In this document: piece by piece, positions 4,262-27,242 of the stretch
How the letters are laid out: every line of letters begins with the position of its first letter
Position numbering within the stretch: the stretch's first letter is position 1
Origin: an uncultured virus (IMG/VR IMGVR_UViG_3300021387_000008)
Taxonomy: Duplodnaviria; Heunggongvirae; Uroviricota; Caudoviricetes; Crassvirales
DNA: 27,934 nt
Strand: one strand, 5' to 3'
Virus record (IMG/VR): IMGVR_UViG_3300021387_000008
The notes under the pieces: model-generated
What the model was told of the DNA's origin: nothing
The model's input: only the letters and a program-made list of their open reading frames with translations
The model's database searches: none
Position numbers and translations under genes: made by a program

Positions 4262-4295
4262 AATAATCTAATTATACATTTCTTCTACGGGCGTG

Positions 4296-4616
4296 CTAAT
4301 CAAAGAGATTAACATTCTTATAATCAACTTTGAAATGCTTACAAATAGGTTTCATAATCCAAGACCAAAAAACAGGAGCAAGAATAGCACTGTTTAAAAT
4401 AGTTCTAGTATCATTACCTAATAGATAGTATAGCACCCCTATAGAAAGAATTACCAACAACAACACAAGTCTTTTACTCCAAGTTGTTAAATCTTTGTGT
4501 CCATTTCTATCATTGATAAGTCTAATTATAAGATAAGTTAGAACATTAACTATGATACAAAATGCAAAGTCAAAACTTTCAAGAGTAGTTTGTATTGTAT
4601 TACTTAGTATCTCCAT
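4296..4616 (-). CDS. Holin-like small membrane protein
   Basis: 106 aa, about three hydrophobic helices, charged C-terminus. Confidence 0.5.
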   Translation of the reverse strand: MEILSNTIQTTLESFDFAFCIIVNVLTYLIIRLINDRNGHKDLTTWSKRLVLLLVILSIGVLYYLLGNDTRTILNSAILAPVFWSWIMKPICKHFKVDYKNVNLFD

Positions 4617-4864
4617 TATCTTCTAAATATTTTATTAAAATCAAGTCCGTTACTAACAAGATTAGCCATTACATTCATATTAAAATCATTAGCATTTTCT
4701 TGTGGATGATGTCTAATCCAAGTATTAATAACTTTAATTATTTGTCGTAGCATAATATTATTCTCGTGAGTTTCTTTTATAAGTTGTTTAAACTCAGGAC
4801 TTCTAATAGTTTCTTGTATCTCTATAAGAGTATCAAGAACATAACTTTCTTCTTTGTATGTCAT
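4616..4864 (-). CDS. Hypothetical protein
   Basis: 82-aa ORF, stop overlaps the next start. Confidence 0.6.
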   Translation of the reverse strand: MTYKEESYVLDTLIEIQETIRSPEFKQLIKETHENNIMLRQIIKVINTWIRHHPQENANDFNMNVMANLVSNGLDFNKIFRR

Positions 4865-4951
4865 ATTTCTCCATTCTTAATTTTATTAATATACTCTTTA
4901 GAAGTTAGATTTCTATAAGGCATATTACTATTAGTAACTTTATCTTCTTTA

Positions 4952-5335
4952 TTATTCATACAATCCTGTAAAAGTTGTAATTCCTGTAGGAGTAACATCA
5001 GAAAAAATAGTATAATTATATAAGTTAACTACTTTAGTTGTAGTACCTGTTAAAGTATAACTATTTCCAGTAGAATTTGCAATACTACCACCATCGAACT
5101 CTAAAATACATCCTGCAGGTACAGTAATATTTTCTCCAAGCACATAATCATATTTAACTACATACTTAGTATTAGTAGCAGACATCATTTCTTGTGTAAG
5201 AGTATTAACTCCATTAACAAGATTCTTTTTAAGAATAATTGTTTTATATGTAACAGGCACATTCGGATTAGTAGTTAAAGCAGTCACTCTAACATTAACA
5301 TCAGCCGAACTACCTGGAGCTATTACATTACTCAT
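4952..5335 (-). CDS. Short protein sharing the tailspike N-terminal module
   Basis: Residues 54-85 match residues 55-86 of the 603-aa spike, 17/32 identical with no gaps. Confidence 0.7.
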   Translation of the reverse strand: MSNVIAPGSSADVNVRVTALTTNPNVPVTYKTIILKKNLVNGVNTLTQEMMSATNTKYVVKYDYVLGENITVPAGCILEFDGGSIANSTGNSYTLTGTTTKVVNLYNYTIFSDVTPTGITTFTGLYE

Positions 5336-5347
5336 ATCTTTTCAATT

Positions 5348-6346
5348 TTAATAATTAATATCAATTGTATAAGTTCCAGCTTGATAAGTATTTAAACTTG
5401 TGTAAGCTGTGTAAATTCCAAAAGTAGTAGTATCCATAGGAATATTGAAATCATTCATTTCAATTTGTTCAATCTTAGATACATCAGCAGTAGGAAGAAT
5501 GATAATAATTCTCTGACCTTCTTCTACTTCAATAGTATAACTTCCTGTAGGATCACCATCATAAGGTTTAGTATACTGAGGATTATAAACATCTTCATAA
5601 GTAGCACCTGCGCCAATAAAGAAATCTGAAGCCATAGTTACAGTCTTTTCGTAAGTATAAAGTTTACCAAGAACTTGAGCCTCAACTTTAATAGTAGTTG
5701 TTCCACCAATAGTTCTATCTTCTGAGAAAGTAGCAACAGAAGTTTCTTCAATAACTTTTTCTCCATTAAAGTAAACTTTAACAAAGTCAAATAGACAATA
5801 ATCAGCAGTAGCAGCAATGTTTACAACAGCAGCTTCATTACTAAAGAAACTATCAGGAGTAATACTAATTTGTACATCACCGACTTCAATTCCAAGAGTA
5901 TCAAAGATAAGCTGATAAAGTCCATTAATAGTTTCAGTAAGAGTCTTCTGAGTAACACCCATCACATTACTATTACCATACATTGTACTGAAAGCTTCTC
6001 CACCACTAGCAGTAGCAAGGAACGATTGCATTTGAGTTTCTAAATCATCAATACGTTTTGCTAGAGCGTTAATTATAGCACCAAACGCACCAAGTTTAGC
6101 AATAACTTCTTGTTTAAATTTATCGTAATCAAATACAATATCGTTATGTATTCTACCTATGGGTTTCCAATATTTAATATCAGTGATTGGAGTTCCAGCA
6201 GGTACAGCTTTACGACTAATATAAGTAATCCAAGTACTATAATCAGTAGTAAGAGTCAATCTAGGGAAAGGAAGATTAATATCCCAATCCTCTACATTAA
6301 TAGTAACGTGTCCTAGTTCATCAAGTTGTAGTTTCATAAGTCGCAA
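5348..6346 (-). CDS. Putative tail fibre-associated structural protein
   Basis: 332 aa; coiled-coil segment, beta-rich middle, C-terminal domain resembling that of the collagen fibre. Confidence 0.55.
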   Translation of the reverse strand: MRLMKLQLDELGHVTINVEDWDINLPFPRLTLTTDYSTWITYISRKAVPAGTPITDIKYWKPIGRIHNDIVFDYDKFKQEVIAKLGAFGAIINALAKRIDDLETQMQSFLATASGGEAFSTMYGNSNVMGVTQKTLTETINGLYQLIFDTLGIEVGDVQISITPDSFFSNEAAVVNIAATADYCLFDFVKVYFNGEKVIEETSVATFSEDRTIGGTTTIKVEAQVLGKLYTYEKTVTMASDFFIGAGATYEDVYNPQYTKPYDGDPTGSYTIEVEEGQRIIIILPTADVSKIEQIEMNDFNIPMDTTTFGIYTAYTSLNTYQAGTYTIDINY

Positions 6347-7049
6347 TTACATAATTATGTGTCATAGTTCCACCATTATAATAAGCTGTAACTCTGAGTT
6401 TAACACTACTAGGATTAGTCACAGTATATTCAGATAAGTTAGGAACATAATGTTCATCAATATAATAATCTACCTCAACATTTGCATATTCATAATTTGG
6501 CATAGGCACACCATCAATATAATATACAAGTTTAGTAGTTATCTTTCCGTTAGAGTAAGAAGCTTCACAATCAAAATCAAAAGGATAAACATAACTGCCT
6601 TCTCCGTTTTCATCGTCAATTGAATAATCTTCTTCAAAACCAAGACCTTGATTTTGTTTCATCAAATCTTCCTCTTCGTTAATCCAAAAACGAGGTCTAT
6701 CATTACAACTAACAAAAGCTTTAAGTTTTCCATTTTCATCGATAGGAAATACATAGCTTGTTGAATTATCTTTACCTTTGTATATCTGATTTATCTTAGC
6801 TTTAATATAATTAATAATAAGTTGTGCTTTCTTTTCTTGACCAAGAAGTCTTGCAGCACAAGCAGCATTAAACATATTAAAACATTCAATAGCACCACTA
6901 TTTCTATCAGTACAATTTGCTTTACAATCTTTTAGCATATCTTCACCGTAATCAGCTAGCATAGCCATAATACGATGATAGACACAAACATATTCAGCAG
7001 GAATAGTTAGATAAATATACTCAGGAATAACTTCTTTTCTGTAACTCAT
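6321..7049 (-). CDS. Putative tail-associated structural protein
   Basis: 242 aa, Cys-containing helical N-terminus; sits between capsid genes and fibre genes. Confidence 0.5.
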   Translation of the reverse strand: MSYRKEVIPEYIYLTIPAEYVCVYHRIMAMLADYGEDMLKDCKANCTDRNSGAIECFNMFNAACAARLLGQEKKAQLIINYIKAKINQIYKGKDNSTSYVFPIDENGKLKAFVSCNDRPRFWINEEEDLMKQNQGLGFEEDYSIDDENGEGSYVYPFDFDCEASYSNGKITTKLVYYIDGVPMPNYEYANVEVDYYIDEHYVPNLSEYTVTNPSSVKLRVTAYYNGGTMTHNYVIATYETTT

Positions 7050-7282: not shown

Positions 7283-7287
7283 AAACC

Positions 7288-7935
7288 TTATGTATTAAAT
7301 GTCTTATTGTTAATGTAAGTTGAATACTCATTAACACAAACATTAAGTCTGTTATTAACTTGAGTAATTCTAGTCATAGCATCTTGACCGTTGTAAATAA
7401 TATCTACTAGGTTATCAGCTATTTCTTTAATCCATTCTTCTTTTAGTCTACTTGCTACATTTACATCGTTAATTTCATAAATTGCTAAAGCAGAGTATAG
7501 TCTATAATATTCGTTACTAACAAGTTTGTTAATATTACCAACGATAAACTCTCTGTTCTTATCAATATTATTGTGAGCAATAATAGAAGCAGCTTCTTGA
7601 ATTATCCGCAAAGATGAAGCTTTAAAAGCTAAATCTATAGCACTCTCACATTGACGAACTTTCTTTTTCTCTGCACCTTGTAAAGTTTTATCTAAAACAC
7701 CATTTAGTCTAACTACATTTTCAGTGTTTTCTTTTATAGCCTCAGCCATTTCTATAAGAGGTTTGTTTTTAGCTTTTCCTTTAAAATATCCAATAAGTTG
7801 AACAATTAAAGTATAAAGAATAAACACACAACTTGAAATAGCTACAGTGTAATAAGAAGAATTTCGAACACTTTCATTAACAATATCGTTTACTGTTTGA
7901 AAGTCATTCATAACATTAAGTATTAAGTCCATCAC
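7288..7935 (-). CDS. Membrane-anchored hypothetical protein
   Basis: 215 aa, one N-proximal hydrophobic helix followed by helical domain; start is GTG 7935 or ATG 7932. Confidence 0.65.
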   Translation of the reverse strand: MMDLILNVMNDFQTVNDIVNESVRNSSYYTVAISSCVFILYTLIVQLIGYFKGKAKNKPLIEMAEAIKENTENVVRLNGVLDKTLQGAEKKKVRQCESAIDLAFKASSLRIIQEAASIIAHNNIDKNREFIVGNINKLVSNEYYRLYSALAIYEINDVNVASRLKEEWIKEIADNLVDIIYNGQDAMTRITQVNNRLNVCVNEYSTYINNKTFNT

Positions 7936-7968
7936 CTCCCCCGTAGAAGAGATGATGGATTACTTAAT

Positions 7969-8916
7969 TTAAGGATTCTCGTCATTGTTTGCTTCTTCAG
8001 CAGGAACATTTGGTAAAACAGGCTGTTCAAGAATAGCCTTAATAGTATCCAAACTAGCATTGTTAGTAGGTACTGCAATATGTACATACTGCCAAACTTG
8101 TTCGTCACCAGTCTTACCGCTCTCACGCTTAGTAGCAAAGCGAAGATTAAATACAGTGTAACCCTTAGTAGCAATATCAGCCTGTGCAATCTGCTCTACA
8201 ACCTCAGGATAACCAGGATAGATATCCTTAGAAGCCTGGTCAAGATATACAAAGCCCTTGCCTGCAGCACAACGCTGAGCCAAATCCTGAATATAAGCTG
8301 TATCGCCAATGTTAGGCTCAGCCTCAGTAATTGTTACAGTTGTACCAAACAGGTCATCGCCAGCCAGAAGATTAAACTGCTCACCAAAGTTAAGACCATC
8401 AACAGTAATCTTAGCAGAAGCTACAGTAACTGCGATGTTAAGAGAACCTGCATCAGCAATAGCCTGAAGTTGATCGCCAAGAGACTTAGCCATATCAGCA
8501 GCAGACATAGACTTACCAACACGACGAGTATCAGTAACATTCCACTGATAACGTTCTCCAGGAACAGTACCCTTCTTAACAATAGTCAGAGTGAAATCAT
8601 CACCTTCTGCAGGAGCAGGAATAGTAATCTCACCCTTGAACTTTTTACCAGCAACAGGAGCAGCAAAGTTAACGTTAAGGGTATTAATATCTACCTCAGG
8701 AATTACGAAAGCAGGAACATTAGCACCTCTACCCAAAGCAATACCAAAGTTCTCAGTAGGCTTTGTATTAAAGAATGTAACTTTACCTTCGTTAGCACCT
8801 GAAGCATCAGGACTCAGATGGAAGAAACCAATCTGACCTGCATCAAGAACAGTCAAGTCATCGGCAACACCAGTCTTGACAGCCTTAGCACTATTTACAA
8901 TAAGTAACTGTTTCAT
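7969..8916 (-). CDS. Virion structural protein, candidate auxiliary capsid protein
   Basis: 315 aa, beta-rich, higher-GC codon usage like the MCP; third gene after MCP as in Crassvirales (synteny inference). Confidence 0.55.
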   Translation of the reverse strand: MKQLLIVNSAKAVKTGVADDLTVLDAGQIGFFHLSPDASGANEGKVTFFNTKPTENFGIALGRGANVPAFVIPEVDINTLNVNFAAPVAGKKFKGEITIPAPAEGDDFTLTIVKKGTVPGERYQWNVTDTRRVGKSMSAADMAKSLGDQLQAIADAGSLNIAVTVASAKITVDGLNFGEQFNLLAGDDLFGTTVTITEAEPNIGDTAYIQDLAQRCAAGKGFVYLDQASKDIYPGYPEVVEQIAQADIATKGYTVFNLRFATKRESGKTGDEQVWQYVHIAVPTNNASLDTIKAILEQPVLPNVPAEEANNDENP

Positions 8917-8932
8917 TTGTTATAAAATTAAT

Positions 8933-9763
8933 TTAAGATTGATAACCATCATTATCAGGACGAGCATTATTTCTAACAAGCTCTTGTTGATTTTGTTGAG
9001 CATTCTGTTGATTAGCATACAGAGAACCTTGGATAGAAACTCTATAAAGGTCAACTGCATGCTTAAGCATAGGAATTTGAAGTTGCTCAGGAAGATCAGA
9101 ATCTACGTTAGTTCCGCCAATATCAGTTAAATACTTAACTTCATTAGGCTTCTTAATATAAGACATTCTGACATCTTTAACAGTAAGAGAGTCTGCTAAA
9201 GTAGACATACCTGTAGCATCATTCTCACCTAAATAGATTTCCAAAGTACTAGCTTCTACAGAATTATCCTTTGCATATACTACCATAACTGGAGTACGCA
9301 TACGAGGAGAAAGAACCCAATCGTTAAGAACGTCAGCAAGGTAAGCATCATCTATAATACGAATTGGGAACCATCTTGTAGTAGTAGCTGATTGACCATC
9401 ACTATTTTGGTATCTAATAGAGAAATCAACAAAATATAATGCTTTAGCTGTACCAAGCATAGTATCTGAGTCCAATGTAAGAGGAGAATTCTTATAAGAA
9501 TTAACAGTACCTCCATTAGGAACAGTATACGTTTTTACTTTATATAGTGTACGAAGTGCATTAATGTTAGCGAGTTTAGCGTTATCCGTAATGATTCTAT
9601 CGTTAGTTGTTCCGACATTACGATTGACCACCTCATCAATAGTGTCCTTAATAGACGTATTGATGAGAGTGTCAATCTGTTCGGGAAGGATTGCACGAAC
9701 ATTCTGCATACCCATTTGAGTAGCATATTGTCTAAACCATACGTGCATTTCCGCTATTGTCAT
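8933..9763 (-). CDS. Candidate tail ring / head-tail connector protein
   Basis: 276 aa; MT..EM...F start and Y..KP...LPE motif typical of tubular/ring proteins; two genes after MCP. Confidence 0.6.
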   Translation of the reverse strand: MTIAEMHVWFRQYATQMGMQNVRAILPEQIDTLINTSIKDTIDEVVNRNVGTTNDRIITDNAKLANINALRTLYKVKTYTVPNGGTVNSYKNSPLTLDSDTMLGTAKALYFVDFSIRYQNSDGQSATTTRWFPIRIIDDAYLADVLNDWVLSPRMRTPVMVVYAKDNSVEASTLEIYLGENDATGMSTLADSLTVKDVRMSYIKKPNEVKYLTDIGGTNVDSDLPEQLQIPMLKHAVDLYRVSIQGSLYANQQNAQQNQQELVRNNARPDNDGYQS

Positions 9764-9775
9764 AACTCAGAATAT

Positions 9776-10876
9776 TTAGAATAACTTATATTTGTTCTGC
9801 ATTGCTTCCAGTACATTCTTATTATTAGGATTATTGAAATAAGCTACTGCCTCATTCATATTACTACCAATAAATGTACCATCAGCCGTAGAAATCTGTT
9901 GATTGTATTCTGGACGTATAAGCTCACCTCTAGAAATAAGACTTTCGATAAATGCCTTCATTTCAACATTCTTATCCTCAAACAAGTTGTTGAACTTATC
10001 AGGACTTTCATTAAGGAAAGACATAAGAGCAGAAACTTGTTCGTCTGCAGACTTAAGCATAGCTTCACCAACATTGCCGTTATTATTAACAATCATTTGA
10101 ATGTAAACAGCATTACGTTTCTTGTCACTAGCCTCAAGTGCAAGGAAGTTACGCATAGCTTTACGACGTTCATCAACAAGCCTCTTAGCACGCTCTGCTT
10201 CTTTATTTTCATCACGGATATAGAACCTAAGGGAAGCATCTGAATTAATCAAAGAAATATCCTTAGCTACGTCACGATAAAGAATACAATGACGATAAAT
10301 AAGATATTCTTCAATATTTTCTGGGCGACCATATAGATATTTAGTTGATTCGAGTTCATTAATTTCAGTTACCCAAACCTTAATAGCATCCTTAATAGCA
10401 GATGTGTTATTTCTAGCAACAGCATCTCGTTTGGCATTAATCTTATCTTCTTGTTCCTTAATCTTTAAATAATCTTTCTTATGATTATAACGGAAAGAGA
10501 TATTCAGAGGAGTACCCTTCTCGTTAACATTGAAAGAAATATTATTAAGGTAAGCCTTAACATGAGATGTAAATTCTTGATGACTTGGAGATATACCGAT
10601 AAGTTCAGGGAAATAAGCCTCAACTTCACCCTTATTAGACGAAAGAATGCGACTAGAGTTAATAGAACTTCCAATCACAGTCTTACGAGGACCAATGCTA
10701 GCTTTGTTAGCGTTACGATAAGCTGAGAAAAGTTGTACAGGAGCAATAGTCACAGTACGCTTATCAAGATATGGCTCATTAAGTTCGGCTTCTTTAGCAG
10801 CAGTATTCTCAGCTACTGTCTTACCTCCATTAACATTTGCAGGATTTACCTGGGGTGTAGGTTTAATATTATCCAT
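9776..10876 (-). CDS. Crassvirales-type protein downstream of MCP, function unknown
   Basis: 366 aa helical protein directly after MCP. Confidence 0.65.
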   Translation of the reverse strand: MDNIKPTPQVNPANVNGGKTVAENTAAKEAELNEPYLDKRTVTIAPVQLFSAYRNANKASIGPRKTVIGSSINSSRILSSNKGEVEAYFPELIGISPSHQEFTSHVKAYLNNISFNVNEKGTPLNISFRYNHKKDYLKIKEQEDKINAKRDAVARNNTSAIKDAIKVWVTEINELESTKYLYGRPENIEEYLIYRHCILYRDVAKDISLINSDASLRFYIRDENKEAERAKRLVDERRKAMRNFLALEASDKKRNAVYIQMIVNNNGNVGEAMLKSADEQVSALMSFLNESPDKFNNLFEDKNVEMKAFIESLISRGELIRPEYNQQISTADGTFIGSNMNEAVAYFNNPNNKNVLEAMQNKYKLF

Positions 10877-10902
10877 TGTTTAAATCTATTAATTATTTAC
10901 AT

Positions 10903-12378
10903 TTACAGAACACACTTCAACTGCATCATCTTAGTAGCGTTGTTCACTTGCAGACCATAAGAGTTCTTGATTTCGTAAGAGCTCTTATCAACAGTAGTAG
11001 AAATACTATTGTTAGGAACAGCACCCCAAGAAGCAGGAATAGGAGTAAGACCCTTCAGAACACCCTGATGATAAATCTGTCCCTTCTGACGAACCTTACG
11101 AATATTACGAACACCTTCATAAGTACTCATATCAAGCATAAATGCCTGGTGAGAACACATAGGAAGACCAGTACGAGGATGGATGTTACCGTTAGCACGG
11201 TCACTATCAGCAAGAGAACCCTTAGTCAAGAATGACAGAGTCTTCAAAGTAATAGTATGACCATCAACAGTCTTATACTGACGGAAGTACTTACCATAAG
11301 AAAGACCACCTTCAGTTTCCTCAATCATCTTATCACCAAGAGGAGTAAGGAAACCTTCTGACTTAGCATCCTCACGAATCATAAGGTCAAAGTCCTCAAC
11401 AAAGCCCTTACCACAACCAAGAACTACTTCCATAGAACCTGTATCGGTAGATTTATCAAGAACATCACCAATAGTACGATTGAACTTATTAAGAGTAAGA
11501 CGCTCTCCATAAGTATCGTAGTTAGATTCACGACAAATCTGCTGCATACCAGCAGTGTGAGGAATAGGATTACCGTTGTCAGGGTCAATCAGAGGAATAG
11601 TACCATCTTCAAGACGGTTATACTCTGCGAACCAAAGACGTTCCTCATCCATAACACGAATTTGAAGGTCATGCTGACGCATCTCTTCGTTAATCCAAAG
11701 ATTAGTAGTACCACCATTCTTTGTTCTAAACTCATAAGTAACAATAACGTTACTCAGATTACCAGCAATTTCCTTAGAATAACGGTGGAACTCAAGTTGA
11801 GAAGTCATCTTACCAGGTCCCATAACGTTACTACGATTACCCTTAGAATAACTCTCAGGGATAGTAGGAGCGCTAAGAGTCCAATACTTACCAACAGCAA
11901 GCAAGTCTGGGTCTACAAAAGCATTAGGATTAGGACTAGTAATCTGAAGTCTATAGAGATAACCACCATGAGCACCAGGACCAAGGTCTTTCATAATACG
12001 AACCTGAGTCATACCATCGGGTGCAATCAAACCGTACTGCTCAATAAACCAATGAGTAGCAAATTCAACCTCAAACTGAGCACCACCCTTACCAGGAGTA
12101 GTATTTGCAGTGTTGAACCAAAGAACATAGTCATTAAACTTAGTACGACCCATAGTCTTCCAAGTCCACTGAACTGTGTCAATATCAACTGTACCGATAG
12201 AACCCTGACCCTCTGTCAAGAATGTAAGCGGGAATCTATCATCGTCATAACCATAAGTATAAGTCAGAACGTTGTTGATTTCCGCAGCTTTAGTAATGGC
12301 AAGATTAGCAATGGTTTCCTCGTTAGAGTAACCACGGTCATCATAAGTGCCACGTTTTACTTCTCTAAGTCTGTACAT
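10903..12378 (-). CDS. Major capsid protein (crAss-like)
   Basis: 491 aa, strong codon bias, position in terminase-portal-scaffold-MCP order, resembles crAss-like MCPs as recalled. Confidence 0.85.
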   Translation of the reverse strand: MYRLREVKRGTYDDRGYSNEETIANLAITKAAEINNVLTYTYGYDDDRFPLTFLTEGQGSIGTVDIDTVQWTWKTMGRTKFNDYVLWFNTANTTPGKGGAQFEVEFATHWFIEQYGLIAPDGMTQVRIMKDLGPGAHGGYLYRLQITSPNPNAFVDPDLLAVGKYWTLSAPTIPESYSKGNRSNVMGPGKMTSQLEFHRYSKEIAGNLSNVIVTYEFRTKNGGTTNLWINEEMRQHDLQIRVMDEERLWFAEYNRLEDGTIPLIDPDNGNPIPHTAGMQQICRESNYDTYGERLTLNKFNRTIGDVLDKSTDTGSMEVVLGCGKGFVEDFDLMIREDAKSEGFLTPLGDKMIEETEGGLSYGKYFRQYKTVDGHTITLKTLSFLTKGSLADSDRANGNIHPRTGLPMCSHQAFMLDMSTYEGVRNIRKVRQKGQIYHQGVLKGLTPIPASWGAVPNNSISTTVDKSSYEIKNSYGLQVNNATKMMQLKCVL

Positions 12379-12411
12379 AACTTTTAATTAATTATTAAAC
12401 TTTAGTTGTGA

Positions 12412-13731
12412 TTAACCTAGAACAATATCATCAACTGAAGATTTACTAGCAGGCTTAGTTACCTTTACTGTTTTATGAGCACGATTTTCTTTTGATTTAA
12501 GTTTAAGAGTACGAACCTCGTTCTCCTTAATAGCCATAGTAGCTAAATCTTTATACGTACCACCAGTAAACATAAGCCAAGCAGTAATTAGCTCACGAGC
12601 TAAATAATCATCATCAGATTCATTTGCTAGGTCTTTCTGATATCCAGTAATTCTGTTACCATCAGCATCAACTTCAGTTTGCCTACTAAGATAATTATAG
12701 AAGTCTGTAGGTGTTAGAGTTTGCTTTTTACCATCTACTTCTTTAACAAAACTGTCAGGCAGTTTATATCCAGCAATAGTTCTGCCGTTAATAACGTCAT
12801 TAACTTTATTCCAATATGTTTCAATCTCTTGTTGCTCTTGTGCACGAGCAGCATTAGCACGCTGTTCAATCTCAGCTCTAACAGTCTTATCTTTATCCTG
12901 CAAAGCCTTAAGTTGATTTACAGCCTCATCATAAAGACCACCTGTGTCTTTAAGATATTTAATGTAATTGTCATTCAAAGAAGCATTACCAAATTCTCTG
13001 GCTGCCATACGAACTATAGTTTCCTGCTGAGCTGCATTATCTTTATCAATCTGCCAACCAGTTCTATCAGGAAGCTCACCAAAACCACGAGGAGAACCAT
13101 TAACCTGAACATAATCAATAAACTGCTTAAGCAGAGGATTATCAGCATACAACTTATTAACAGCACCTTCGGCTATTTCATTACGCTGTAAATCTACTAC
13201 AGCTTTAACGTAAGCTTGAACACCAGCAGCATCATTCGTAAATTCTACAGGTTTTCCATCTTCTCCAACAATTGTCTGACCGAAAGCATCCTGAATAGTT
13301 TCAAGACTAATGGTATCATCGGTTTCTTCCTGAAGAGATTCAATCCATTCTTTTACGTCTTTAGCTTCTTTAAAGACTTTACCATCTTTGTCAACTAGAT
13401 CACCATTCTCAGCAACAGTGTAGGTTTCACCTTCAAATTCAACATTGTCACCAGCTGCAAGCTCCCCCGTAGAAGAATTGTTTGCATTGTTGTTGTCATT
13501 GTCATTGTTGCTGTTATTAGCATCATTGTTGTTGTTGACATCATCGTTATTAGAATTGTTATTATTAGCGTTATCTTTACTAGTGATATCGCTATTGTTA
13601 CTGTTATTCAAATCAGTAACATCTTGCTGATTATTGTTATTGTTATCAGCATTGTTACGAGAGTTATTGTCAGAATTATCAGAAATCTGATTATTATTCT
13701 GTCCCTCAAAATCAATATCAATTTCTGCCAT
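12412..13731 (-). CDS. Putative scaffolding/assembly protein
   Basis: 439 aa immediately upstream of MCP; Asn/Asp low-complexity N-terminus, coiled coil, short basic C-terminus. Confidence 0.6.
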   Translation of the reverse strand: MAEIDIDFEGQNNNQISDNSDNNSRNNADNNNNNQQDVTDLNNSNNSDITSKDNANNNNSNNDDVNNNNDANNSNNDNDNNNANNSSTGELAAGDNVEFEGETYTVAENGDLVDKDGKVFKEAKDVKEWIESLQEETDDTISLETIQDAFGQTIVGEDGKPVEFTNDAAGVQAYVKAVVDLQRNEIAEGAVNKLYADNPLLKQFIDYVQVNGSPRGFGELPDRTGWQIDKDNAAQQETIVRMAAREFGNASLNDNYIKYLKDTGGLYDEAVNQLKALQDKDKTVRAEIEQRANAARAQEQQEIETYWNKVNDVINGRTIAGYKLPDSFVKEVDGKKQTLTPTDFYNYLSRQTEVDADGNRITGYQKDLANESDDDYLARELITAWLMFTGGTYKDLATMAIKENEVRTLKLKSKENRAHKTVKVTKPASKSSVDDIVLG

Positions 13732-13780
13732 AACTTAAACTTTAGATTTATAATAATTATTACTTTGTTATAAGACGCTA

Positions 13781-13811
13781 CAAATATAATACTTTTATCT
13801 CAATCTGCAAA
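13781..13811 (-). promoter_or_regulatory. Bacteroidota primary-sigma promoter for scaffold-MCP operon
   Basis: Minus strand TTTG (13811-13808), 19-nt spacer, TATATTTG (13788-13781), 50 nt before ATG at 13731. Confidence 0.7.
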
Positions 13812-14080
13812 ATATTTTAAAACTTTTTAATAAATATATGTACCATTGCCACTGATACCACAATTAAATAATGTACGCACGAAATTAATGATGCCAACAA
13901 TTTAAGCACAAACTTTAATAGCTTGAGCAGCAATCAATAATCTTTTCTAAAGGGGTGCAAATACTATCTAAAAATCCTCTATTTGCTATCATAAGTTTGT
14001 CATGTTGTTTAGAAATATGTCGGTCGATAAGTTATTCAGCAAGACTATACAAACCTGCCAAAATGAATTTTCAATCCTAC

Positions 14081-14127
14081 AAATAAATAAAGTGTCCTGA
14101 ATAGTACATTTAATACTACCAGGACAC
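14081..14127 (-). terminator. Intrinsic terminator
   Basis: GTGTCCTG (14092-14099) / CAGGACAC (14120-14127) stem, followed on minus by TTTATTTATTT, just after stop at 14153. Confidence 0.65.
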
Positions 14128-14152
14128 AGAGTAACTTGGGAATGCACTCAAG

Positions 14153-14566: not shown

Positions 14567-14624
14567 ATTATTTTAATTTTAATTAGTTATACTATAAAAC
14601 AAATCAAGTGCCAAATTTGTTATT

Positions 14625-14726
14625 TTAAGTGTTTGCAAACTTAATCATCTTTTCAATAGTTTCTTCTCTAAGATTAAGATGTTTATCTTTAACGTATTGA
14701 ACAAGACGTTCTTTTAGTTTATTCAT
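14625..14726 (-). CDS. Small hypothetical protein, 33 aa
   Basis: MNKLKERLVQYVKDKHLNLREETIEKMIKFANT*; ATGA-coupled to upstream ORF. Confidence 0.45.
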   Translation of the reverse strand: MNKLKERLVQYVKDKHLNLREETIEKMIKFANT

Positions 14727-14872: not shown

Positions 14873-14884
14873 ATTATAAATTAT

Positions 14885-19239: not shown

Positions 19240-19254
19240 TTTATTTTAATTAAT

Positions 19255-21531
19255 TCAATACCAGGCTCTAGTCCATATATTATCACTATTCTTTTCTATT
19301 TTCTTACGATGAGCTAGTTCTTTTGCAGCTTGAACATCAAAAAGACGCCAACGAAGAGCTCTCATAATCATCTCAGAGACCCTATCAAAGTTACCAAGAT
19401 TATTCCATTTTTTAAGTTCAAGAATAGATTGATAATCATAGATAGTTTGGAAGAAATATACATCATGACCTAATTCATCTTTACCTATAACAGTGTAAAG
19501 CATTTCTTTAAGCAGACGTAATCCTTCGAGTTTCTTAGTACCATCTCCCATATTAACACCATAAGTACCAGCTACTTTACCTTTAAGAGAAGTATCCCAT
19601 ATTTCTACAGGGTCTTTCATAAGATAACGTAAAGCTTTCCATTTAGTAAAATTACTTACAGTTTCACCTCTGTTAATTTCGACGGCAGTAGTACCAACAC
19701 AATTATACATTCTAGCTAACAAATAACATATCCAATCAGCCTCTTCAAGTTTTTCAGGACGACCATAATAAGCAGCTGCAAGAGCAGGCTTAAAATTATT
19801 ATATTGACATGGTTCCATCCAAACTTTAATACTATTATGAGAATGTTTATTTGTAATAGCTCTATTTTCTTTATTTACACCAACAGGGTCATAGCTTATA
19901 GAATAAATACCTGGAGGAGTTCCCATAACTTGATTTCCATCTTTATCAGTATATTGTACCTTAATAGGATTAAACCAAAGACGAACACAACCGTGAGGAT
20001 GTTCGTGACCTTTACGAGGAACACCTTGTATCCATTCATAAAAATCCTGATTAAGTTTTCCTCCTTCAGCTTCTATTCTAGCATTAGTTTTGAAAATAAC
20101 TCTTCTCTTATCATTAGGATCTTCAATAACAGTACCGTCAACATAGAACTTAAATCTATTATCTGTTCTAAGACTTTCTTCCCAAGACATAAGAGATTCA
20201 CTACTAAATAGGTTTTCAGTAGTAGAACTGAAAGACTCAGAAGGCATATTAGCATACTGACCAAGATAATTGATATAGTCAGCAAAAGTCTTAGATGTAG
20301 CTTTCTTATGTTCTCTTTCTTTAAATGCAATCTGAAGACCAATAACTAGATTAGAGTTACCATCTTCATCCATTGCATACTGGTCACCAATCTGACCTTG
20401 AAGACCCCAGGCATAAGGTTTGAAATATCCACAGCATTCATTACGACTATCTTTATCCCAAACATTTTCAAAAGGCATAAAGCCAAATGATTGTGGGGAA
20501 TAAAAGTTAGTTTCAAATACTTGCATATTTCCAGAAGTAGCAGTACCCCAACAGAAAAGATTACCTGTAACATAACTACCAGTTCTCATAGCAGGTTCAG
20601 TTACAGACATAAAGTCATCAAAGTTATCCATAGTAGATAACTCCTCAACCTTAACCTTCATAGCGTCTTTACCAATAGCACAATCTGGATTATTCATCGC
20701 AGATACACTAAACAAAGCACTATTCCAAGATTTAGGAGATACTGTACCATTAGGAAGTTTAAAGCCTAGTCTAAAGTTTTCTGAGTTGGTTGAGAGAATA
20801 CCTCTAACAAAAGGAGTCTTAGTTTCATAGAAACGTAGATTGTTAATTGTAAAATCAGTAAGACCTCCAGTTGCTGTAAGATACTTTTTATCAGCAGCTA
20901 CATGAATACCAACCTTTCTAGAATTTAAATTCAAATCGTTAGCAGAATCAGCAGCCATAATATAAGAGAATCCACCACGTCTAGTTTTATCTATAATAAG
21001 ATGAAAACCATTACGTTGTACAAATTCCATTATATGCCAAGTCCAAAATTGAGCATCAATAAACTTTGGAAAGTCATATACTTTTCTACCTGTTGAGGCT
21101 TTATCTGTAGCTTTAGCTGATTTAGTATCAAGCTGCTCAATCATAGTATAGTTCAAGTAATTATACATACCACCAGTGATACGTACATCTTGAACTACAC
21201 CATTACGCATAAGACAAGGAGCAGTATATCCGTGTTTACGACGATATTCTTCTCTCTTTCTAAAACGTCTATGAGGAACACTATCTTGTTTAAAAAAAGT
21301 GTAACATTTATTTTTACGATAGAAATCAGCAGCCTCTGTAAATAGATGAGTATTTACAAATCTATCTCCAGGTTGAATATTAAGAAGAAAACCGCCAGAC
21401 TCTCCAATAAGAAACAAATCATCAGGGTCATCATAGCCTGCATCTTTTGCATGCTTATAATGACTCTTATCTTCATTTATATATTGAAGAAAAGGATAAT
21501 CCTTAATATATTTCTCAACAGTCTGTTCCAT
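19255..21531 (-). CDS. terL: Terminase large subunit
   Basis: 758 aa; Walker A-like KTRRGGFSY, Walker B VKVEE, GTAT coupling motif, RNase H-like YDP / VEINRG / FDRV. Confidence 0.9.
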   Translation of the reverse strand: MEQTVEKYIKDYPFLQYINEDKSHYKHAKDAGYDDPDDLFLIGESGGFLLNIQPGDRFVNTHLFTEAADFYRKNKCYTFFKQDSVPHRRFRKREEYRRKHGYTAPCLMRNGVVQDVRITGGMYNYLNYTMIEQLDTKSAKATDKASTGRKVYDFPKFIDAQFWTWHIMEFVQRNGFHLIIDKTRRGGFSYIMAADSANDLNLNSRKVGIHVAADKKYLTATGGLTDFTINNLRFYETKTPFVRGILSTNSENFRLGFKLPNGTVSPKSWNSALFSVSAMNNPDCAIGKDAMKVKVEELSTMDNFDDFMSVTEPAMRTGSYVTGNLFCWGTATSGNMQVFETNFYSPQSFGFMPFENVWDKDSRNECCGYFKPYAWGLQGQIGDQYAMDEDGNSNLVIGLQIAFKEREHKKATSKTFADYINYLGQYANMPSESFSSTTENLFSSESLMSWEESLRTDNRFKFYVDGTVIEDPNDKRRVIFKTNARIEAEGGKLNQDFYEWIQGVPRKGHEHPHGCVRLWFNPIKVQYTDKDGNQVMGTPPGIYSISYDPVGVNKENRAITNKHSHNSIKVWMEPCQYNNFKPALAAAYYGRPEKLEEADWICYLLARMYNCVGTTAVEINRGETVSNFTKWKALRYLMKDPVEIWDTSLKGKVAGTYGVNMGDGTKKLEGLRLLKEMLYTVIGKDELGHDVYFFQTIYDYQSILELKKWNNLGNFDRVSEMIMRALRWRLFDVQAAKELAHRKKIEKNSDNIWTRAWY

Positions 21532-21533
21532 TC

Positions 21534-21905
21534 TTATTTGAATATTGTGAGTACAGCCAAGGATAAGGTGACGAGTACTCCTCCCCCAATAGCGATATTA
21601 CGTTGTCTTTTAACTTGTTTAACTTGTTTCTTAAGAGCATCAATGTTACGGCTGTATTCTCGCATAATGATGTCATCATTTTTAATAATTGAACGAAGTG
21701 AATCATTAATCTCTTTCTCATACTTAAGTTCGACCATCTTTGCATTAGCTTTACGAAGGTCATCAAAATCAATGAGTATAGAGTCATGACTAGCAGTAAG
21801 CTCCCCCGTAGAAGAAATTGTAGCATTATCATTCTGACACCAGCTCGTAGAACAACTTAAGAGTACTATCATTGTCGAGAGTACTAACCTCAATAACTTT
21901 TGCAT
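21534..21905 (-). CDS. Spanin-like protein (signal/lipobox, coiled coil, C-terminal TM)
   Basis: N-terminal hydrophobic stretch ending LLSC, coiled coil, C-terminal IAIGGGVLVTLSLAVLTIF; overlaps upstream gene out of frame. Confidence 0.6.
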   Translation of the reverse strand: MQKLLRLVLSTMIVLLSCSTSWCQNDNATISSTGELTASHDSILIDFDDLRKANAKMVELKYEKEINDSLRSIIKNDDIIMREYSRNIDALKKQVKQVKRQRNIAIGGGVLVTLSLAVLTIFK

Positions 21906-22107
21906 CTTTAATACTATCTAATTTTTCAACTTTAATTTTTATGCTATCGTTTACAGTAATAAGAGAATCAATAACAGTATTATTCTCTACGCAGATGTTA
22001 TTGTTACGTTGTACTATTAATGTTATTAAAGTACCAATTATATATCCTACAAAAAGTATTATAACAATGTTTATAAACCTATTTAATTTAGATATTTTAT
22101 TGTTCAT
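21829..22107 (-). CDS. i-spanin-like protein
   Basis: 92 aa, single N-terminal TM, helical tail, ATGA-coupled to putative endolysin. Confidence 0.55.
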   Translation of the reverse strand: MNNKISKLNRFINIVIILFVGYIIGTLITLIVQRNNNICVENNTVIDSLITVNDSIKIKVEKLDSIKDAKVIEVSTLDNDSTLKLFYELVSE

Positions 22108-22718
22108 ACCAATTCCTCCTCTTTAAGCAATGTATAAGTAAAGTTTTTACCAAGACCATTTTGAATTTGCTTTTGGCAATAATTCATAAAACATTTGAAA
22201 TCTGTTTCACTAGCAAATACTTGACAACCTGCTGACCAAGTATCAACACGTTGACTAAGTTTACCAGCTTTATGAATATTAATACCAAACATTCCTTCAT
22301 CTAAACTATTAATATCCCAATCATATACTTGATTCTTATTATTATCACGATAAACCTTAACTGGCTTTTTCTGACAAAGAGCAAGATACTTACCACGATG
22401 TTTATCTATTTGATAAGCTCCTCGATATTGACCAGGAACAAGAATAGCTGTACCTTTACGAGTAGTAGGATTAAGCATATAATATCTACCTGGGTCTGTA
22501 GTAATATTATAAATCTGACGTTGCCATTGTCCACTAGAACTTTTGTAAATTAATACAAGAACATCATCAAAACTATTTGTTATATTACGACCAGCAGCAC
22601 GAACGCCAATAATATTTAAATTATAAGCGCCGTTAGTAAAATAAGCATAACCTTTCTTTTTAAATAGTTCTTCAAAGTCATATTCTTTGACTTTACTATA
22701 AAGAGCATTTTTAATCAT
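22104..22718 (-). CDS. Putative endolysin, L,D-transpeptidase (YkuD)-like
   Basis: GINIHKAG...WSAGCQV matches the His...S-x-G-C signature; adjacent to spanin-like genes. Confidence 0.65.
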   Translation of the reverse strand: MIKNALYSKVKEYDFEELFKKKGYAYFTNGAYNLNIIGVRAAGRNITNSFDDVLVLIYKSSSGQWQRQIYNITTDPGRYYMLNPTTRKGTAILVPGQYRGAYQIDKHRGKYLALCQKKPVKVYRDNNKNQVYDWDINSLDEGMFGINIHKAGKLSQRVDTWSAGCQVFASETDFKCFMNYCQKQIQNGLGKNFTYTLLKEEELV

Positions 22719-22719
22719 A

Positions 22720-23706
22720 TTAAAATAAACTTAGTTGTTGATTACTTGTTTTATTATCAGCTTTCAATCTGTAATATCTATCTTTAAGAAGAGCCTTAGC
22801 TTCGTTCTTAAGATATTGTATTTTAAACCATTTAACTGTTTCTTCACCGTTTGGGTCAACATGATAACCTTCATTATCTCTAAGAGGCTGACCATATTTA
22901 TTTAAAACCCAAGGACTTCCTATATGACAAAGACCAAGTCCTACACAAGGAATGTCCAAAATGATTTCAGCCATAATAGCATAGAGAGAAAGCTGCATAG
23001 TATAATGCATACCATTACAATCGTCGAGATGATTGAGAGGAGGAAGCATACTTTGCTTTTTCTTAACCCATTCATTAGTTAGTTGATTAGGAATTGTAGA
23101 CTTATCTTTTTTATAATACCCAGCTTCAAATTTAAGACCATCTCTATTTGTTTTCCAATCTAAAATAACAAAATCAGTAGGACGATAACAGAAAATGTCA
23201 ATAGTTCCACTAATAAGATAGTCGATAAGGAATGCTCCAATTTCGGAGTATATAGTATATCCTCGCTCAGTATAGAAATCAAATACTCTATATATTTCGG
23301 GATATTTATTATTAGTTGCTGCTTTAAACTCTTCGACATCTAAAGGTCTAGGTATTAAATCAGGAATATCTGCAATAGTAATGCATCTTCCAGACTTTGC
23401 TTCTTCTAAGTATTTTATAGCTTCTTTAAACTTACTAACACTTTTAATAGCATCTTCTATACCATTATGTGTAGCAGTTCCTCTTTCACAAGCTTCATCT
23501 TTAATTCTATTCCATTCAGCACGGATTTGTTTTTCAGATTTACCTTGTTCTCTAGCTTTCTTATGAGCCCAATAATCTGCATCGAAATGATTATAATAAT
23601 CGCCAATCAAAGTTGTTACGCTGCGATATTCATTTCCAAGAGTATCAGTGTATTTATGAGCTTGTTCTTCAAAGAAAAGAAAGTTATCTTTATATCTATT
23701 ATCCAT
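22720..23706 (-). CDS. PD-(D/E)XK family nuclease
   Basis: SVTT, RGT..H, SE, GTIDIF, ILDWKT, QLSLY motifs in order. Confidence 0.85.
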   Translation of the reverse strand: MDNRYKDNFLFFEEQAHKYTDTLGNEYRSVTTLIGDYYNHFDADYWAHKKAREQGKSEKQIRAEWNRIKDEACERGTATHNGIEDAIKSVSKFKEAIKYLEEAKSGRCITIADIPDLIPRPLDVEEFKAATNNKYPEIYRVFDFYTERGYTIYSEIGAFLIDYLISGTIDIFCYRPTDFVILDWKTNRDGLKFEAGYYKKDKSTIPNQLTNEWVKKKQSMLPPLNHLDDCNGMHYTMQLSLYAIMAEIILDIPCVGLGLCHIGSPWVLNKYGQPLRDNEGYHVDPNGEETVKWFKIQYLKNEAKALLKDRYYRLKADNKTSNQQLSLF

Positions 23707-23709
23707 AGC

Positions 23710-24318
23710 TTAATTATCTTCAGCATCCATTGAACTTAAAACAGCATTACCTCCACGAGAAAGTTCTGTTTCTTGTTCATACATAAGATTTTGTTTAGCT
23801 TCTTCAAGCTTTTTAAGTATAGAAGGAATATCTCCAGCCTCTTTCTTGACTGCTGCTATATTAGCAAACATAACAGATAGTTCTTCACCACTGAGAGTTG
23901 GCTTAGCAAGTTGGTCATTGAAATACTTATTAAGATGACTAATAAGAAGATTAACGTTATGAATAGTCTGAAGTATATTTTCTACAACACGACCAGCTTC
24001 AGTAAGATTTTCATCTTCATATCTCTTAATAAGACGAAGCACTAGAGAATCAGGTATATAATCTTTTTTAAGACCTGCTTGCTCAATAGCATAAGCAAGA
24101 GCTTCTCGTTCGCTTAATCCAGATTGTCTAGCAGGAGATTTAGGATCACCTAACTGATAAATAACTATAGCTTCAGCCATATATTGTTTCTTATCAGGAG
24201 ATTTATCTCTACTATAAAGAGTTCTAATATCTCTATCAAGTAATTGTCGAATTTCAGGAGCCTTAGGCATTCCTGTATCATCAACAACAAGCAAGCTATC
24301 AATAGTTACCGTTTTCAT
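23710..24318 (-). CDS. Hypothetical helical protein
   Basis: 202 aa with C-terminal coiled coil; a small-terminase role is possible but unsupported. Confidence 0.65.
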   Translation of the reverse strand: MKTVTIDSLLVVDDTGMPKAPEIRQLLDRDIRTLYSRDKSPDKKQYMAEAIVIYQLGDPKSPARQSGLSEREALAYAIEQAGLKKDYIPDSLVLRLIKRYEDENLTEAGRVVENILQTIHNVNLLISHLNKYFNDQLAKPTLSGEELSVMFANIAAVKKEAGDIPSILKKLEEAKQNLMYEQETELSRGGNAVLSSMDAEDN

Positions 24319-24808
24319 CTTCTACAGGAATATATTCGTTTTCAACAGCAGTAATACTAGAAATAAGAAAAAAATGAATACGAGCATATCCAACACCTTT
24401 CTCTTTACATAGTTTCTTAAATAGATTTCTATTTTTAGCAACTGCCATACTTAAAACATAGTTATAATATCTAGTAGCTTTAACTCGCTTTTCATTACTA
24501 TAAGCAAGTTCTCTTCTAAACATTACAAACTGTTCATTAGTAACAGTATGAATAGCATCATCAATAAGTTGTTTTTGTTCTGGTGTATTAGACATTTTAA
24601 CAACATCAGGAACTTTAATGCTACCCATAAAAGGAATACCTGTCCAACGACCTTTACGCAAAAAGTTAGCGGCATCAACTTCACATTGTTTAACAATAGC
24701 TAATGCTACTTCTTTGTCAACAATGTTACAATTAATAGTGTTAATGATATCTTCTTTACGAACTACCTTAACATCATTACCGCCTGGAAATTTATATGTA
24801 TCAGTCAT
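24299..24808 (-). CDS. Divergent HU/IHF-like DNA-binding protein
   Basis: RKEDIINTI ... ANFLRKGRWTGIPFMGSIKV follows the HU pattern K.ELI..I ... L..G..V.I.GFG.F.V. Confidence 0.45.
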   Translation of the reverse strand: MTDTYKFPGGNDVKVVRKEDIINTINCNIVDKEVALAIVKQCEVDAANFLRKGRWTGIPFMGSIKVPDVVKMSNTPEQKQLIDDAIHTVTNEQFVMFRRELAYSNEKRVKATRYYNYVLSMAVAKNRNLFKKLCKEKGVGYARIHFFLISSITAVENEYIPVEDENGNY

Positions 24809-24884
24809 TTTATTTCTTTTATAATCTACGGAGGTTCTTGTAAGAACAGCACCTCAACAAGCACCCCCGTAGAGAAAGTGATGA

Positions 24885-25427
24885 TTAAGCTTCCCCACCC
24901 TGAGTAAATACCTTATGAACAAAAGGATTAGTAAAACTATTCTTAGTCTTATCAAGTTTAGATTTAATAGCACCTATAGGAACTAGTTTAAACTCAACAA
25001 GACAAATAGGAGTATGTAACTCTAGAGTACTCTGATAAAATTCCTTACCTGCGTTTTGACAAACTCTAACAATGTTATCAGGAGTGATTTTATTATAAGG
25101 AGAATTAATATGATTACCAATAGAAAGATCGCTACCAGAAACAACAATCTTATCTCCCATATTCAAACCATTAACAAATTCAGAATCTGTAGTTCCAGCC
25201 TTAATGAAAACAGGAACAATAGCAACATTAGCACCTTCTTTTCTTTTAGATGCAGTAAGAATAAGGTTCAGAGAATCCTTATACACAATTGCAACCAAAG
25301 CATAATTAGGAGCAGGATGTACAAAATCAGTACACTGTTTGAAATAATCAACAGGAATCTCTTCAAGACTCTCAGGAAGGCTAAGTTCAAATTCACCTAA
25401 AGCCCCATTTACTTTAAAATTCTTCAT
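24885..25427 (-). CDS. Hypothetical protein with GroES-like motifs
   Basis: HPAPNYALV...LILTAS...FIKAG...LNMGDKIVV parallels GroES motifs. Confidence 0.4.
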   Translation of the reverse strand: MKNFKVNGALGEFELSLPESLEEIPVDYFKQCTDFVHPAPNYALVAIVYKDSLNLILTASKRKEGANVAIVPVFIKAGTTDSEFVNGLNMGDKIVVSGSDLSIGNHINSPYNKITPDNIVRVCQNAGKEFYQSTLELHTPICLVEFKLVPIGAIKSKLDKTKNSFTNPFVHKVFTQGGEA

Positions 25428-25459
25428 ATTACTTAAATGTTTAAATTAATAATTTGGGA

Positions 25460-25582
25460 TTACCCATTTGTATTATTAGCATTATGTGTTGGAACATTAT
25501 ATCCAGTATTTGTAGAGTTATCAGTCTTATAAGGACTGTAATCATAATTTTGCTGAACTATTCCGTAAGGAGTATAAATCAT
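25460..25582 (-). CDS. Small hypothetical protein, 40 aa
   Basis: MIYTPYGIVQQNYDYSPYKTDNSTNTGYNVPTHNANNTNG*; first ORF after the -7 element at 25625. Confidence 0.45.
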   Translation of the reverse strand: MIYTPYGIVQQNYDYSPYKTDNSTNTGYNVPTHNANNTNG

Positions 25583-25624
25583 AGAAAATATAATTTAAAT
25601 TAATGTTCCAACCACTATTTAGGG

Positions 25625-25632
25625 CAAAGATA
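25625..25632 (-). promoter_or_regulatory. Bacteroidota -7 promoter element heading the minus-strand operon
   Basis: TATCTTTG on minus; only TTTC at the expected -33 position. Confidence 0.5.
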
Positions 25633-25913
25633 AGAATAATATTCCATATAATGAAATTTTTTAATATTAACATATTTTAATTAACATTCCTTAACATAGT
25701 ACTAGTAAAGTTAGTGAGAGTATTAATGATAGTAATAAAGAGAGTAGTAGCTTGATGCTAATCATCAATTCTTTCTACGGGGGTGCTTATAAGTACGAGT
25801 AACACAATTATTATTAATAGTATAATCTAAGTAACACTTCATTAGGATTATAAGTACAAGTAATAGCTAAAATAGTAATAAAAGTACATATTTTATTAAA
25901 TAATCTTAAAAAA

Positions 25914-27234: not shown

Positions 27235-27242
27235 TGTCCTCT

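Follow-up and report, generated by a model that had tools for sequence, protein, structure and literature searches.

The subject of this analysis is a GC-rich word, built on the 10-mer CCCCCGTAGA, that recurs within and between genes in a stretch of 27,934 nucleotides from an uncultured virus of the Crassvirales (IMG/VR record IMGVR_UViG_3300021387_000008); this whole stretch is referred to below as the window. We find that the copies in the window are the local representatives of a strand-specific DNA word that crAss-like phages carry throughout their genomes. The word recurs at matching places in related genomes, is under selection as DNA and not as protein, and is in most cases spaced evenly along each strand taken separately; we tentatively read its copies as preferred start sites of a phage primase. 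A first-pass annotation of the window had taken the word for a cis-acting system at the level of DNA, distinct from a ribosome-binding site or a promoter of the ordinary kind; on this general point our results bear it out.

In the window, CCCCCGTAGA is found seven times (five exact matches and two with one mismatch) against 0.18 expected, and none of 100 dinucleotide-preserving shuffles reached seven matches. The exact 10-mer is the most over-represented of the window and was seen five times where a second-order Markov model expects 0.001, so the excess that the first-pass annotation had estimated only roughly stands against a Markov background. Scanning with a weight matrix returned six strong sites (27–36 bits) and two weak look-alikes, with no hits in shuffled sequence. 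The exact cores reported earlier at 7938–7947, 13464–13473, 21803–21812 and 24864–24873 (plus strand) and at 25774–25783 (minus strand) were all recovered by the motif scan, as were the variants at 4284–4293 and 24825–24834 (both minus), each with one mismatch. Two details fared less well. A weaker copy listed at 542–551 may be a decayed one; it has two mismatches, scores less than 10 of ~39 bits and is not returned by a one-mismatch scan. The prefix AAGC[A/T], given as part of the word, precedes four of the seven sites (13464, 21803, 24864 and 25774) and is replaced by TAGCA at 4284 and CACCT at 7938, with none at 24825. That orientation is independent of transcription is plain from the window itself, where the genes between 1 and 25427 all lie on the minus strand whilst four strong sites are on the plus strand and two on the minus.

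The anatomy of the word was derived from 83 core copies, pooled from the window and four complete relatives. Read on its own strand it consists of (C)TA, G (62 of 83 copies) or A, C, T (68 of 83) or A, CCCCC, GTAGA and then four purines, and the GTA is kept at all six strong sites of the window. Conservation extends over 17–26 positions; taken as a whole, the word has ~20 conserved bases, followed by about ten that are poor in C. In the ten bases 3′ of the purine block, which are T/G-rich, C accounts for 5.0% against 14.3% in the genome (82 sites, P=1e-17), and beyond this tail there is no further conservation. The word is asymmetric and not palindromic. A hairpin unit, such as a repetitive extragenic palindrome (REP) or miniature inverted-repeat transposable element (MITE), is ruled out: the mean folding energy is -2.83 kcal/mol at the 83 sites and -2.89 in 300 random windows. 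The sole inverted pair in the window (24825/24864) is made of one degenerate and one strong copy. A search of the sites for Rfam and transfer RNA (tRNA)-type structures found no known RNA family or tRNA, and a search for promoters and terminators around the word, made in one region only, gave no pattern.

The uncultured phage cr271_1 (Intestiviridae, Obtuvirinae; G003 in our set of genomes) is the closest named relative of the window, a third of the query aligning to it at ~76% identity; for the prototype crAssphage (Carjivirus communis) the identity is ~72% in the genes for capsid, portal and terminase. Presence of the word in related genomes and at orthologous positions, on which the first-pass annotation had staked its proposal, was seen throughout these relatives. 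An exact 17-base form occurs at at least 139 loci on at least 50 viral contigs (contigs tallied by eye), many of them ~90 kb long. The 9-base core CCCCGTAGA is present in 10–27 copies in each of five complete relatives, where the reversed control word has 0–1, and it falls on both strands (forward/reverse counts 15/12, 4/6, 5/8, 10/9 and 9/11). The word also tops the list of over-represented k-mers in each of four relatives (G001, G003, G004 and G005).

More distant genomes have spellings of their own. A sister word, G-G/T-n-T-A-K-A-C-Y-CCCC-G-T-R-GAGGATGGA, is present 31 times in crAssphage (18 times on the plus strand and 13 on the minus), and its block GAGGATGGA, corresponding to the C-poor flank, is free of C; GTR at 31 of 31 sites is guaranteed by the search pattern, and no covariation was seen between the Y before the C-run and the R of GTR (6/10/10/5, read by eye). 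Neither spelling was found in the first 100 kb of the cultured crAss001 (Steigviridae), which instead has CTTCTGGAG in 27 copies (10 plus, 17 minus), where 2.0 are expected and the reversed word occurs twice. The crAss001 word contains CTG and has a G-poor 5′ flank; no C-poor 3′ flank signal was detected in it. In phi14:2 the best candidate (20 copies against 2.2 expected) was rejected, being a one-strand cluster in structural genes that looks like a Gly-Gly-Ala coding bias. MH675552 and NC_021806 were analysed up to their last 2.7 and 0.4 kb, respectively. Spelling is thus uniform within a genome and dependent on lineage between genomes, and crAss-like phages seem to share the word as a trait of the family.

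The first-pass annotation had also suggested looking for the motif in host genomes. Among bacteria, sampled as one genome for each of 185,579 species, the exact 17-mer has 42 loci; ten of these (11 matches) are in one 93.8-kb contig, and the remaining 32 contigs have one match each. For the exact 17-mer a host signal is therefore ruled out, as it is multi-copy in no bacterial genome of this set. The contig JAFRAK010000011.1 (93,767 bp), assigned to a goat-gut 'Bacilli bacterium' metagenome-assembled genome (MAG) and carrying 11 exact 17-mers, is most likely a mis-binned crAss-like phage, and a 97-kb contig of a Porphyromonadaceae MAG may be another.

What is conserved at these sites is DNA and not protein. 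Using our own simple open reading frame (ORF) picks in the relatives to assign coding status, 32 of 84 copies are intergenic although only ~10% of the DNA is non-coding, and the 52 coding copies cover all five stop-free frames, with none in the frame that would read TAG. Antisense copies make up 35 of the 52 and encode SSTGEL-type (24), [F/L]YGGA (9) or LLRGS (2) peptides, whilst the sense copies encode S[S/T]PVE (14) or PRR (3). They do so with the rarest codons of these genomes, each taking 0.3–3.6% of its synonym set: GGG supplies 1.0% of the codons for Gly, ACG 1.8% of those for Thr, CCC and CCG 1.1% and 1.4% for Pro, TCC 1.2% for Ser and CGG 0.3% for Arg. In protein alignments the copies lie in gap-free aligned columns of the relatives, for example at [F/L]YGG[A/S] in the primase and PVEE in the helicase. 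Since they are translated in frame and aligned without gaps, the copies are not insertions, and a mobile element is ruled out. Their places are kept as well: four of the six strong window copies have counterparts in cr271_1, and two (in the pre-capsid gene and in the small pre-terminase gene) have counterparts in the same gene and orientation in crAssphage, where those that the relatives have in the helicase and the primase are matched too. Selection for the word is acting on the DNA; that it overrides codon choice at dozens of places points to an essential, undescribed step of the life cycle.

The arrangement of the copies says something about how the word is read. Spacing was tested on strict cores only, degenerate copies being missed, by comparing the coefficient of variation (CV) of the gaps between same-strand copies with 5,000 random placements, for which it is ~0.92 in crAssphage. 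The observed values there are 0.31 on the plus strand (P<0.0002) and 0.43 on the minus strand (P=0.001). Evenness of this kind recurs in G004 (0.49, P=0.017; 0.44, P=0.012) and in its close relative G005 (0.40, P=0.004; 0.58, P=0.05), two genomes that are not independent in these counts. It is also seen on one strand of G001 (0.48, P=0.002, the other strand having 0.63, P=0.085), on the minus strand of cr271_1 (0.43, P=0.016) and in crAss001 on the minus strand (0.46, P=0.002), the plus strand having 0.58 (P=0.08). Nine of the 12 strand sets are evener than random at P≤0.05, and the rest have P=0.08, 0.085 and 0.83. Each strand has one copy per 5–10 kb, with smallest same-strand gaps of 1.1–5.6 kb, whilst copies on opposite strands can be 29–600 bp apart (minimum 29 bp in crAssphage and 127 bp in G004). 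Across seven sequences, all 25 gaps of less than 1 kb between neighbours separate copies on opposite strands, and none separates copies on the same strand. The structural block is one-sided both in the window, with four antisense and two sense strong copies, and in cr271_1, with seven of its eight sites of at least 20 bits (3.5–48 kb) antisense to the genes.

To judge from these counts, the reader of the word must be a single-strand or directional one and not a plain duplex-binding protein, because opposite-strand pairs cluster and same-strand pairs never do: for a duplex binder blind to orientation, a close pair on opposite strands would be as redundant as a pair on the same strand. The reader is also probably encoded by the phage and dependent on lineage, since each genome has one spelling, lineages differ and the word is lacking in bacteria. 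In crAssphage, three convergent intergenic pairs (22901/22930, 28077/28175 and 95745/95867) lie 29–122 bp apart, and two of the three adjoin two RepL-like genes at strand-switch regions. Should DNA synthesis start at the words, pairs of this kind would send it outward in both directions, as at an origin.

Primases of the DnaG family read a trinucleotide on a single-stranded template, start at its central base and copy towards the template's 5′ end. By analogy with these enzymes, we offer the tentative proposal, possible though short of probable and ranked above the alternatives below, that the copies are preferred start sites of a phage primase of the DnaG/Toprim type. The word-bearing strand would be the template and the primase would start at each copy. 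Recognition would be through the invariant trinucleotide GTA (GTR in crAssphage). The primer would begin opposite the central T, a start base assigned by analogy with known primases, and run 5′-wards on the template across the C-run to yield a G-rich RNA predicted to be stable in a genome of 29–33% GC, whilst the purine block and the C-poor 3′ tail might form a docking flank for the enzyme. Because either strand can be the lagging-strand template, both would need sites at Okazaki-scale intervals.

The primase of phage T7 is a useful yardstick here. A study of this enzyme reports ~14–26 active sites out of 177 candidates, selected through a pentanucleotide and a 10-nt 3′ flank, in which C at positions 9–10 nearly abolishes binding, and Okazaki fragments of 1–6 kb with none below 1 kb (PMC12839067). 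Two corresponding features are found for the word, namely the absence of any same-strand gap below 1 kb and, within the clade, a 10-nt 3′ flank in which C is disfavoured. A candidate enzyme is at hand in the relatives, whose primase belongs to PHROG 12622 'DNA primase' (E 4e-61 for cr271_1, E 2e-168 for crAssphage) and is encoded outside the region covered by the window. Its nearest ESM Atlas clusters have Toprim_2 in 16–100% of their members and Zn_ribbon_DnaG in some, which is a lead only; searches with the PHROG 12622 primase gave no Pfam match and no sequence match to solved structures.

Several observations weigh against priming. Known primases combine a trinucleotide with modest flank preferences, and we know of none that needs 17–26 near-invariant bases. 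Priming at the words alone would yield fragments of 5–9 kb, with gaps of up to 21 kb. Bidirectional replication from a single origin should produce a switch of strand along the genome, and none is seen, the structural block of cr271_1 excepted. Evenness is weak on the minus strand of G001 and the plus strand of crAss001, and missing from the plus strand of cr271_1 (CV 1.03, P=0.83, from five strict-core copies), and a crude search of phi14:2 found no strict word.

A stronger form of the proposal, which we put forward with reserve and would not call likely, is that in crAss-like phages, among them the human gut's most abundant virus, a phage enzyme, either the primase or an RNA polymerase with a liking for single strands, fires only at the word, so that the start of each strand is hard-wired. 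Such an enzyme would oblige the genome to carry the word every few kilobases on both strands in spite of the rare codons that this imposes. If true, this would amount to sequence-programmed synthesis of the lagging or complementary strand, which has not been described for any double-stranded DNA virus, and it would give the phage a built-in means of copying phage DNA only.

The alternative that holds up best is that a phage enzyme makes site-specific single-strand nicks in the word-bearing strand, on both strands of the mature or replicating DNA. Of the published systems, nick motifs come nearest to a word that is conserved in a lineage and scattered both within genes and between them: in phage Rembedalsseter 13 nicks fall at WACTRTGAC, a motif in which 60 related phages show enrichment (PMC11780129). 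A strand-specific outcome would fit the per-strand spacing, and the relatives encode a DNA ligase. Against this, the published motifs described there lie on one strand only (PMC11780129) whereas the word is about equally frequent on both, and where opposite-strand copies come as close as 29 bp (crAssphage) or 127 bp (G004), nicking of both would leave the genome held together by a short overlap. Nor was a candidate nickase found: an HNH nickase beside the ligase was rejected as a conserved reader, the protein at 74894–75502 in cr271_1 being of the homing type (NUMOD4-HNH_3-NUMOD1) and the crAssphage protein in the same position having no HNH match. We consider this explanation, the main rival to priming, rather unlikely.

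Unlikely, in our estimate, is a role for the word as a start site for RNA polymerase, a promoter-like element read towards the purine block to give primer or antisense RNAs from both strands. A near-invariant, asymmetric and lineage-specific word of 17–26 bp followed by a purine stretch has the layout of phage single-subunit polymerase promoters, and the reader could perhaps be the crAss-specific giant polymerase, preferring single-stranded templates. The virion polymerase of phi14:2 is described as transcribing single-stranded and denatured DNA in a preprint, which also reports no common motif upstream of the early transcripts made by this enzyme and sigma-70-like middle and late promoters (10.1101/2020.03.07.982082). 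For a promoter the word would be oddly placed: 35 of the 52 coding-region copies and four of the six strong window copies are antisense, and those in the gene sense are found within essential genes. No T7-type polymerase is listed in the annotations of cr271_1 and crAssphage and, as weak evidence, RNA contigs cross the sites at 21803 and 24825/24864 without stopping.

Two further ideas from the first-pass annotation concern proteins acting on the duplex, and here we see little chance of success. Binding sites for a protein that organises, packages or ejects the genome would be dispersed and independent of genes, as the copies are, and the annotations of the relatives include IHF/HU-like proteins. 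Such a protein predicts even spacing over all copies, however, where we see per-strand even sets with opposite-strand copies 29–600 bp apart (25 opposite-strand gaps below 1 kb to no same-strand gap), an arrangement that an organising protein leaves unexplained; packaging and ejection, being one-way processes, would need a single orientation only.

Least probable of all are Chi-like sites, also raised by the first-pass annotation, at which the word would switch a host or phage helicase-nuclease from degradation to recombination and so mark phage DNA as self: orientation-dependent reading from either side would explain two independent even strand sets, and these phages encode a RecD/Pif1-like helicase, a PD-(D/E)XK exonuclease, RecT and a Gam-like inhibitor, but known Chi sites are words of 5–8 bases, specific to the host and read by its RecBCD or AddAB, whilst the word has 17–26 conserved positions, a spelling that follows phage lineage and a 17-mer form that is multi-copy in none of the bacterial genomes. 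DNA uptake sequences are ruled out by spacing that is even per strand and not overall, and by the lack of any bacterial genome with multiple copies. We reserve about a quarter of the probability for something beyond all of these named possibilities.

The copies of the word and its look-alikes in the window are listed in Table 1. The window covers the structural-gene block of a crAss-like phage (Intestiviridae), with genes for a tail-fibre-like protein, major head protein, portal, large terminase and exonuclease, and a strand switch follows position 25427.

Table 1. Copies and look-alikes of the word in the window, with their setting and their counterparts in relatives
Feature	Position	Strand	Sequence or score	Setting	Counterparts
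Word copy	4276..4299	-	CGCCCGTAGA, one mismatch in C-run; 27–30 bits	Intergenic, gene-sense; ~22 nt upstream of the start of gene 2525–4261 (tail-fibre-like, by PHROG tail-fibre matches); TAG overlaps the stop of ORF 4296–4616	
Word copy, exact core	7932..7955	+		Intergenic, between ORFs 7288–7932 and 7969–8916; antisense to genes	cr271_1 at 20441, in the matching intergenic gap
Word copy, closest to consensus	13458..13481	+	36 bits	Antisense inside the gene of a 439-aa protein, upstream of the major capsid gene; translated SSTGEL, at 20% of the gene	Place and orientation kept in G001, G003 (cr271_1), G004 and G005; crAssphage gp75, within ~15 residues, in a low-complexity stretch
Word copy	21797..21820	+		Antisense in 123-aa ORF 21534–21905, directly upstream of the large terminase gene; SSTGEL	cr271_1 (7005); crAssphage gp78 (91287)
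Degenerate copy	24825..24834	-	CCTCCGTAGA	Faces away from copy 24858; 16 nt upstream of ATG at 24808	Same strong-plus-degenerate pair (24858/24825) in cr271_1 (3520/3546)
Word copy, exact core	24858..24881	+	Tail GAAAG	Intergenic, between ORFs 24299–24808 and 24885–25427; antisense	As for 24825..24834
Word copy, exact core	25766..25789	-		In the long non-coding strand-switch region 25428–26494	
Weak look-alike	4430..4453	+	GCACCCCTATAGAAAG; 13–14 bits	Possibly decayed; excluded from site count	
Weak look-alike	13938..13961	-	GCACCCCTTTAGAAAAG; 12–13 bits	Possibly decayed; excluded from site count	

Some observations on the surroundings of these sites may be recorded here. In the 439-aa protein (12412–13731, minus strand) the first ~100 codons are rich in Asn, Asp, Gly and Gln, of low complexity and different in every relative. 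The word copy stands at the end of this stretch, and contigs of relatives diverge just past the copy at 13464, which is where the variable low-complexity stretch begins. Between the portal gene and the pre-capsid gene, contigs from a sequencing run containing related DNA skip 155–1376 bases at 14147–14894 and 15061–16438, and the depth of that run is ~5 over 15.2–16.6 kb of the window; the 644-aa ORF at 14885–16819, which has a lysozyme/transglycosylase-like segment, is seemingly variable or absent in related strains. Within the tail-fibre-like gene, positions 3739–3892 (minus strand) resemble the Rfam family of the Tombusvirus 5′ untranslated region at a level below threshold (34.6 bits, gathering score 43, E 0.003), most likely by chance.

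The strand-switch region was also conspicuous at the level of RNA when contigs of three RNA runs and one DNA run were compared with positions 7901–27900. Contigs from two ruminant-gut metatranscriptome runs pile up at 25910–26576 (plus strand), especially at 26195–26335, with a summed contig depth of 14,400 and 1,463 in the two runs against mostly 0–100 elsewhere. One contig end, at 26195, abuts letters of the sequencing adapter, and a terminator-like hairpin of 13 pairs with a T-run lies at 26291–26320. The pile-up may represent an abundant small phage RNA; the fold is unexceptional (z -1.5), and the region has no Rfam match and no similar sequence in six relatives. Highly transcribed intergenic regions are reported for phi14:2 in the preprint (10.1101/2020.03.07.982082).

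The first-pass annotation knew of no described function for the word, and the literature yielded none. We found no paper describing the word, and none of six motif strings turned up in a phage paper; a search on crAssphage and nicks returned nothing relevant beyond PMC11780129, broader searches yielded nothing on crAss phages, and one on transcription starts in crAss001 led to PMC8375218, whose passages contain no such motif. The gut virome of humans and animals is dominated by crAss-like phages, which are mechanistically poorly understood. Once its reader is found, the word would offer a sequence tag by which crAss-like contigs can be recognised and classified, a way to orient studies of replication or nicking in cultured members and a constraint to be respected when these phages are recoded or engineered. 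Should it prove to signal priming, it would be an extreme natural example of how a primase selects its sites, which is an open question even for T7.

How the word compares with known systems can be set out most fully for the priming sites of T7 gp4, 5′-(G/T)2GTC-3′ with a 10-nt 3′ flank (PMC12839067). These too are strand-specific and read on a single-stranded template. They share with the word a trinucleotide, a short copied stretch on its 5′ side and a 3′ docking flank that disfavours C, and they likewise number a few dozen effective sites per genome, at least 1 kb apart, inside and outside genes. They differ in being loose preferences found by biochemistry, whereas the word has 17–26 near-invariant positions, occupies orthologous places and tiles both strands genome-wide, its priming role being a prediction. 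The nick motifs of T5, of the phiKMV-like phages and of the Pseudomonas phages tf and Rembedalsseter (WACTRTGAC; PMC11780129) resemble the word in being short, conserved within a lineage, present in ~10–30 copies per genome, inside and outside genes, and unrelated to expression, and what they do is unknown even in phages with proven nicks; they are one-stranded and clustered in part of the genome, whereas the word is longer and lies on both strands with even spacing on each.

Promoters of the T7, T3 and SP6 type are, like the word, asymmetric, near-invariant within a genome and variable in spelling between lineages, with a purine-rich stretch after the core and some copies inside upstream genes. 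All of them point with the genes, however, and need a T7-type polymerase, whilst 35 of the 52 coding copies of the word run against the genes. Finally, Chi sites, FtsK-orienting polar sequences (KOPS) and the uptake signals of bacteria (USS/DUS) are over-represented, oriented words that pass through genes in tolerated frames and are spaced more evenly than chance, as the word is. They have 8–12 bases, number hundreds to thousands of copies per cellular genome and have host machinery as their reader; the word, by contrast, is borne by phages, longer and specific to lineage.

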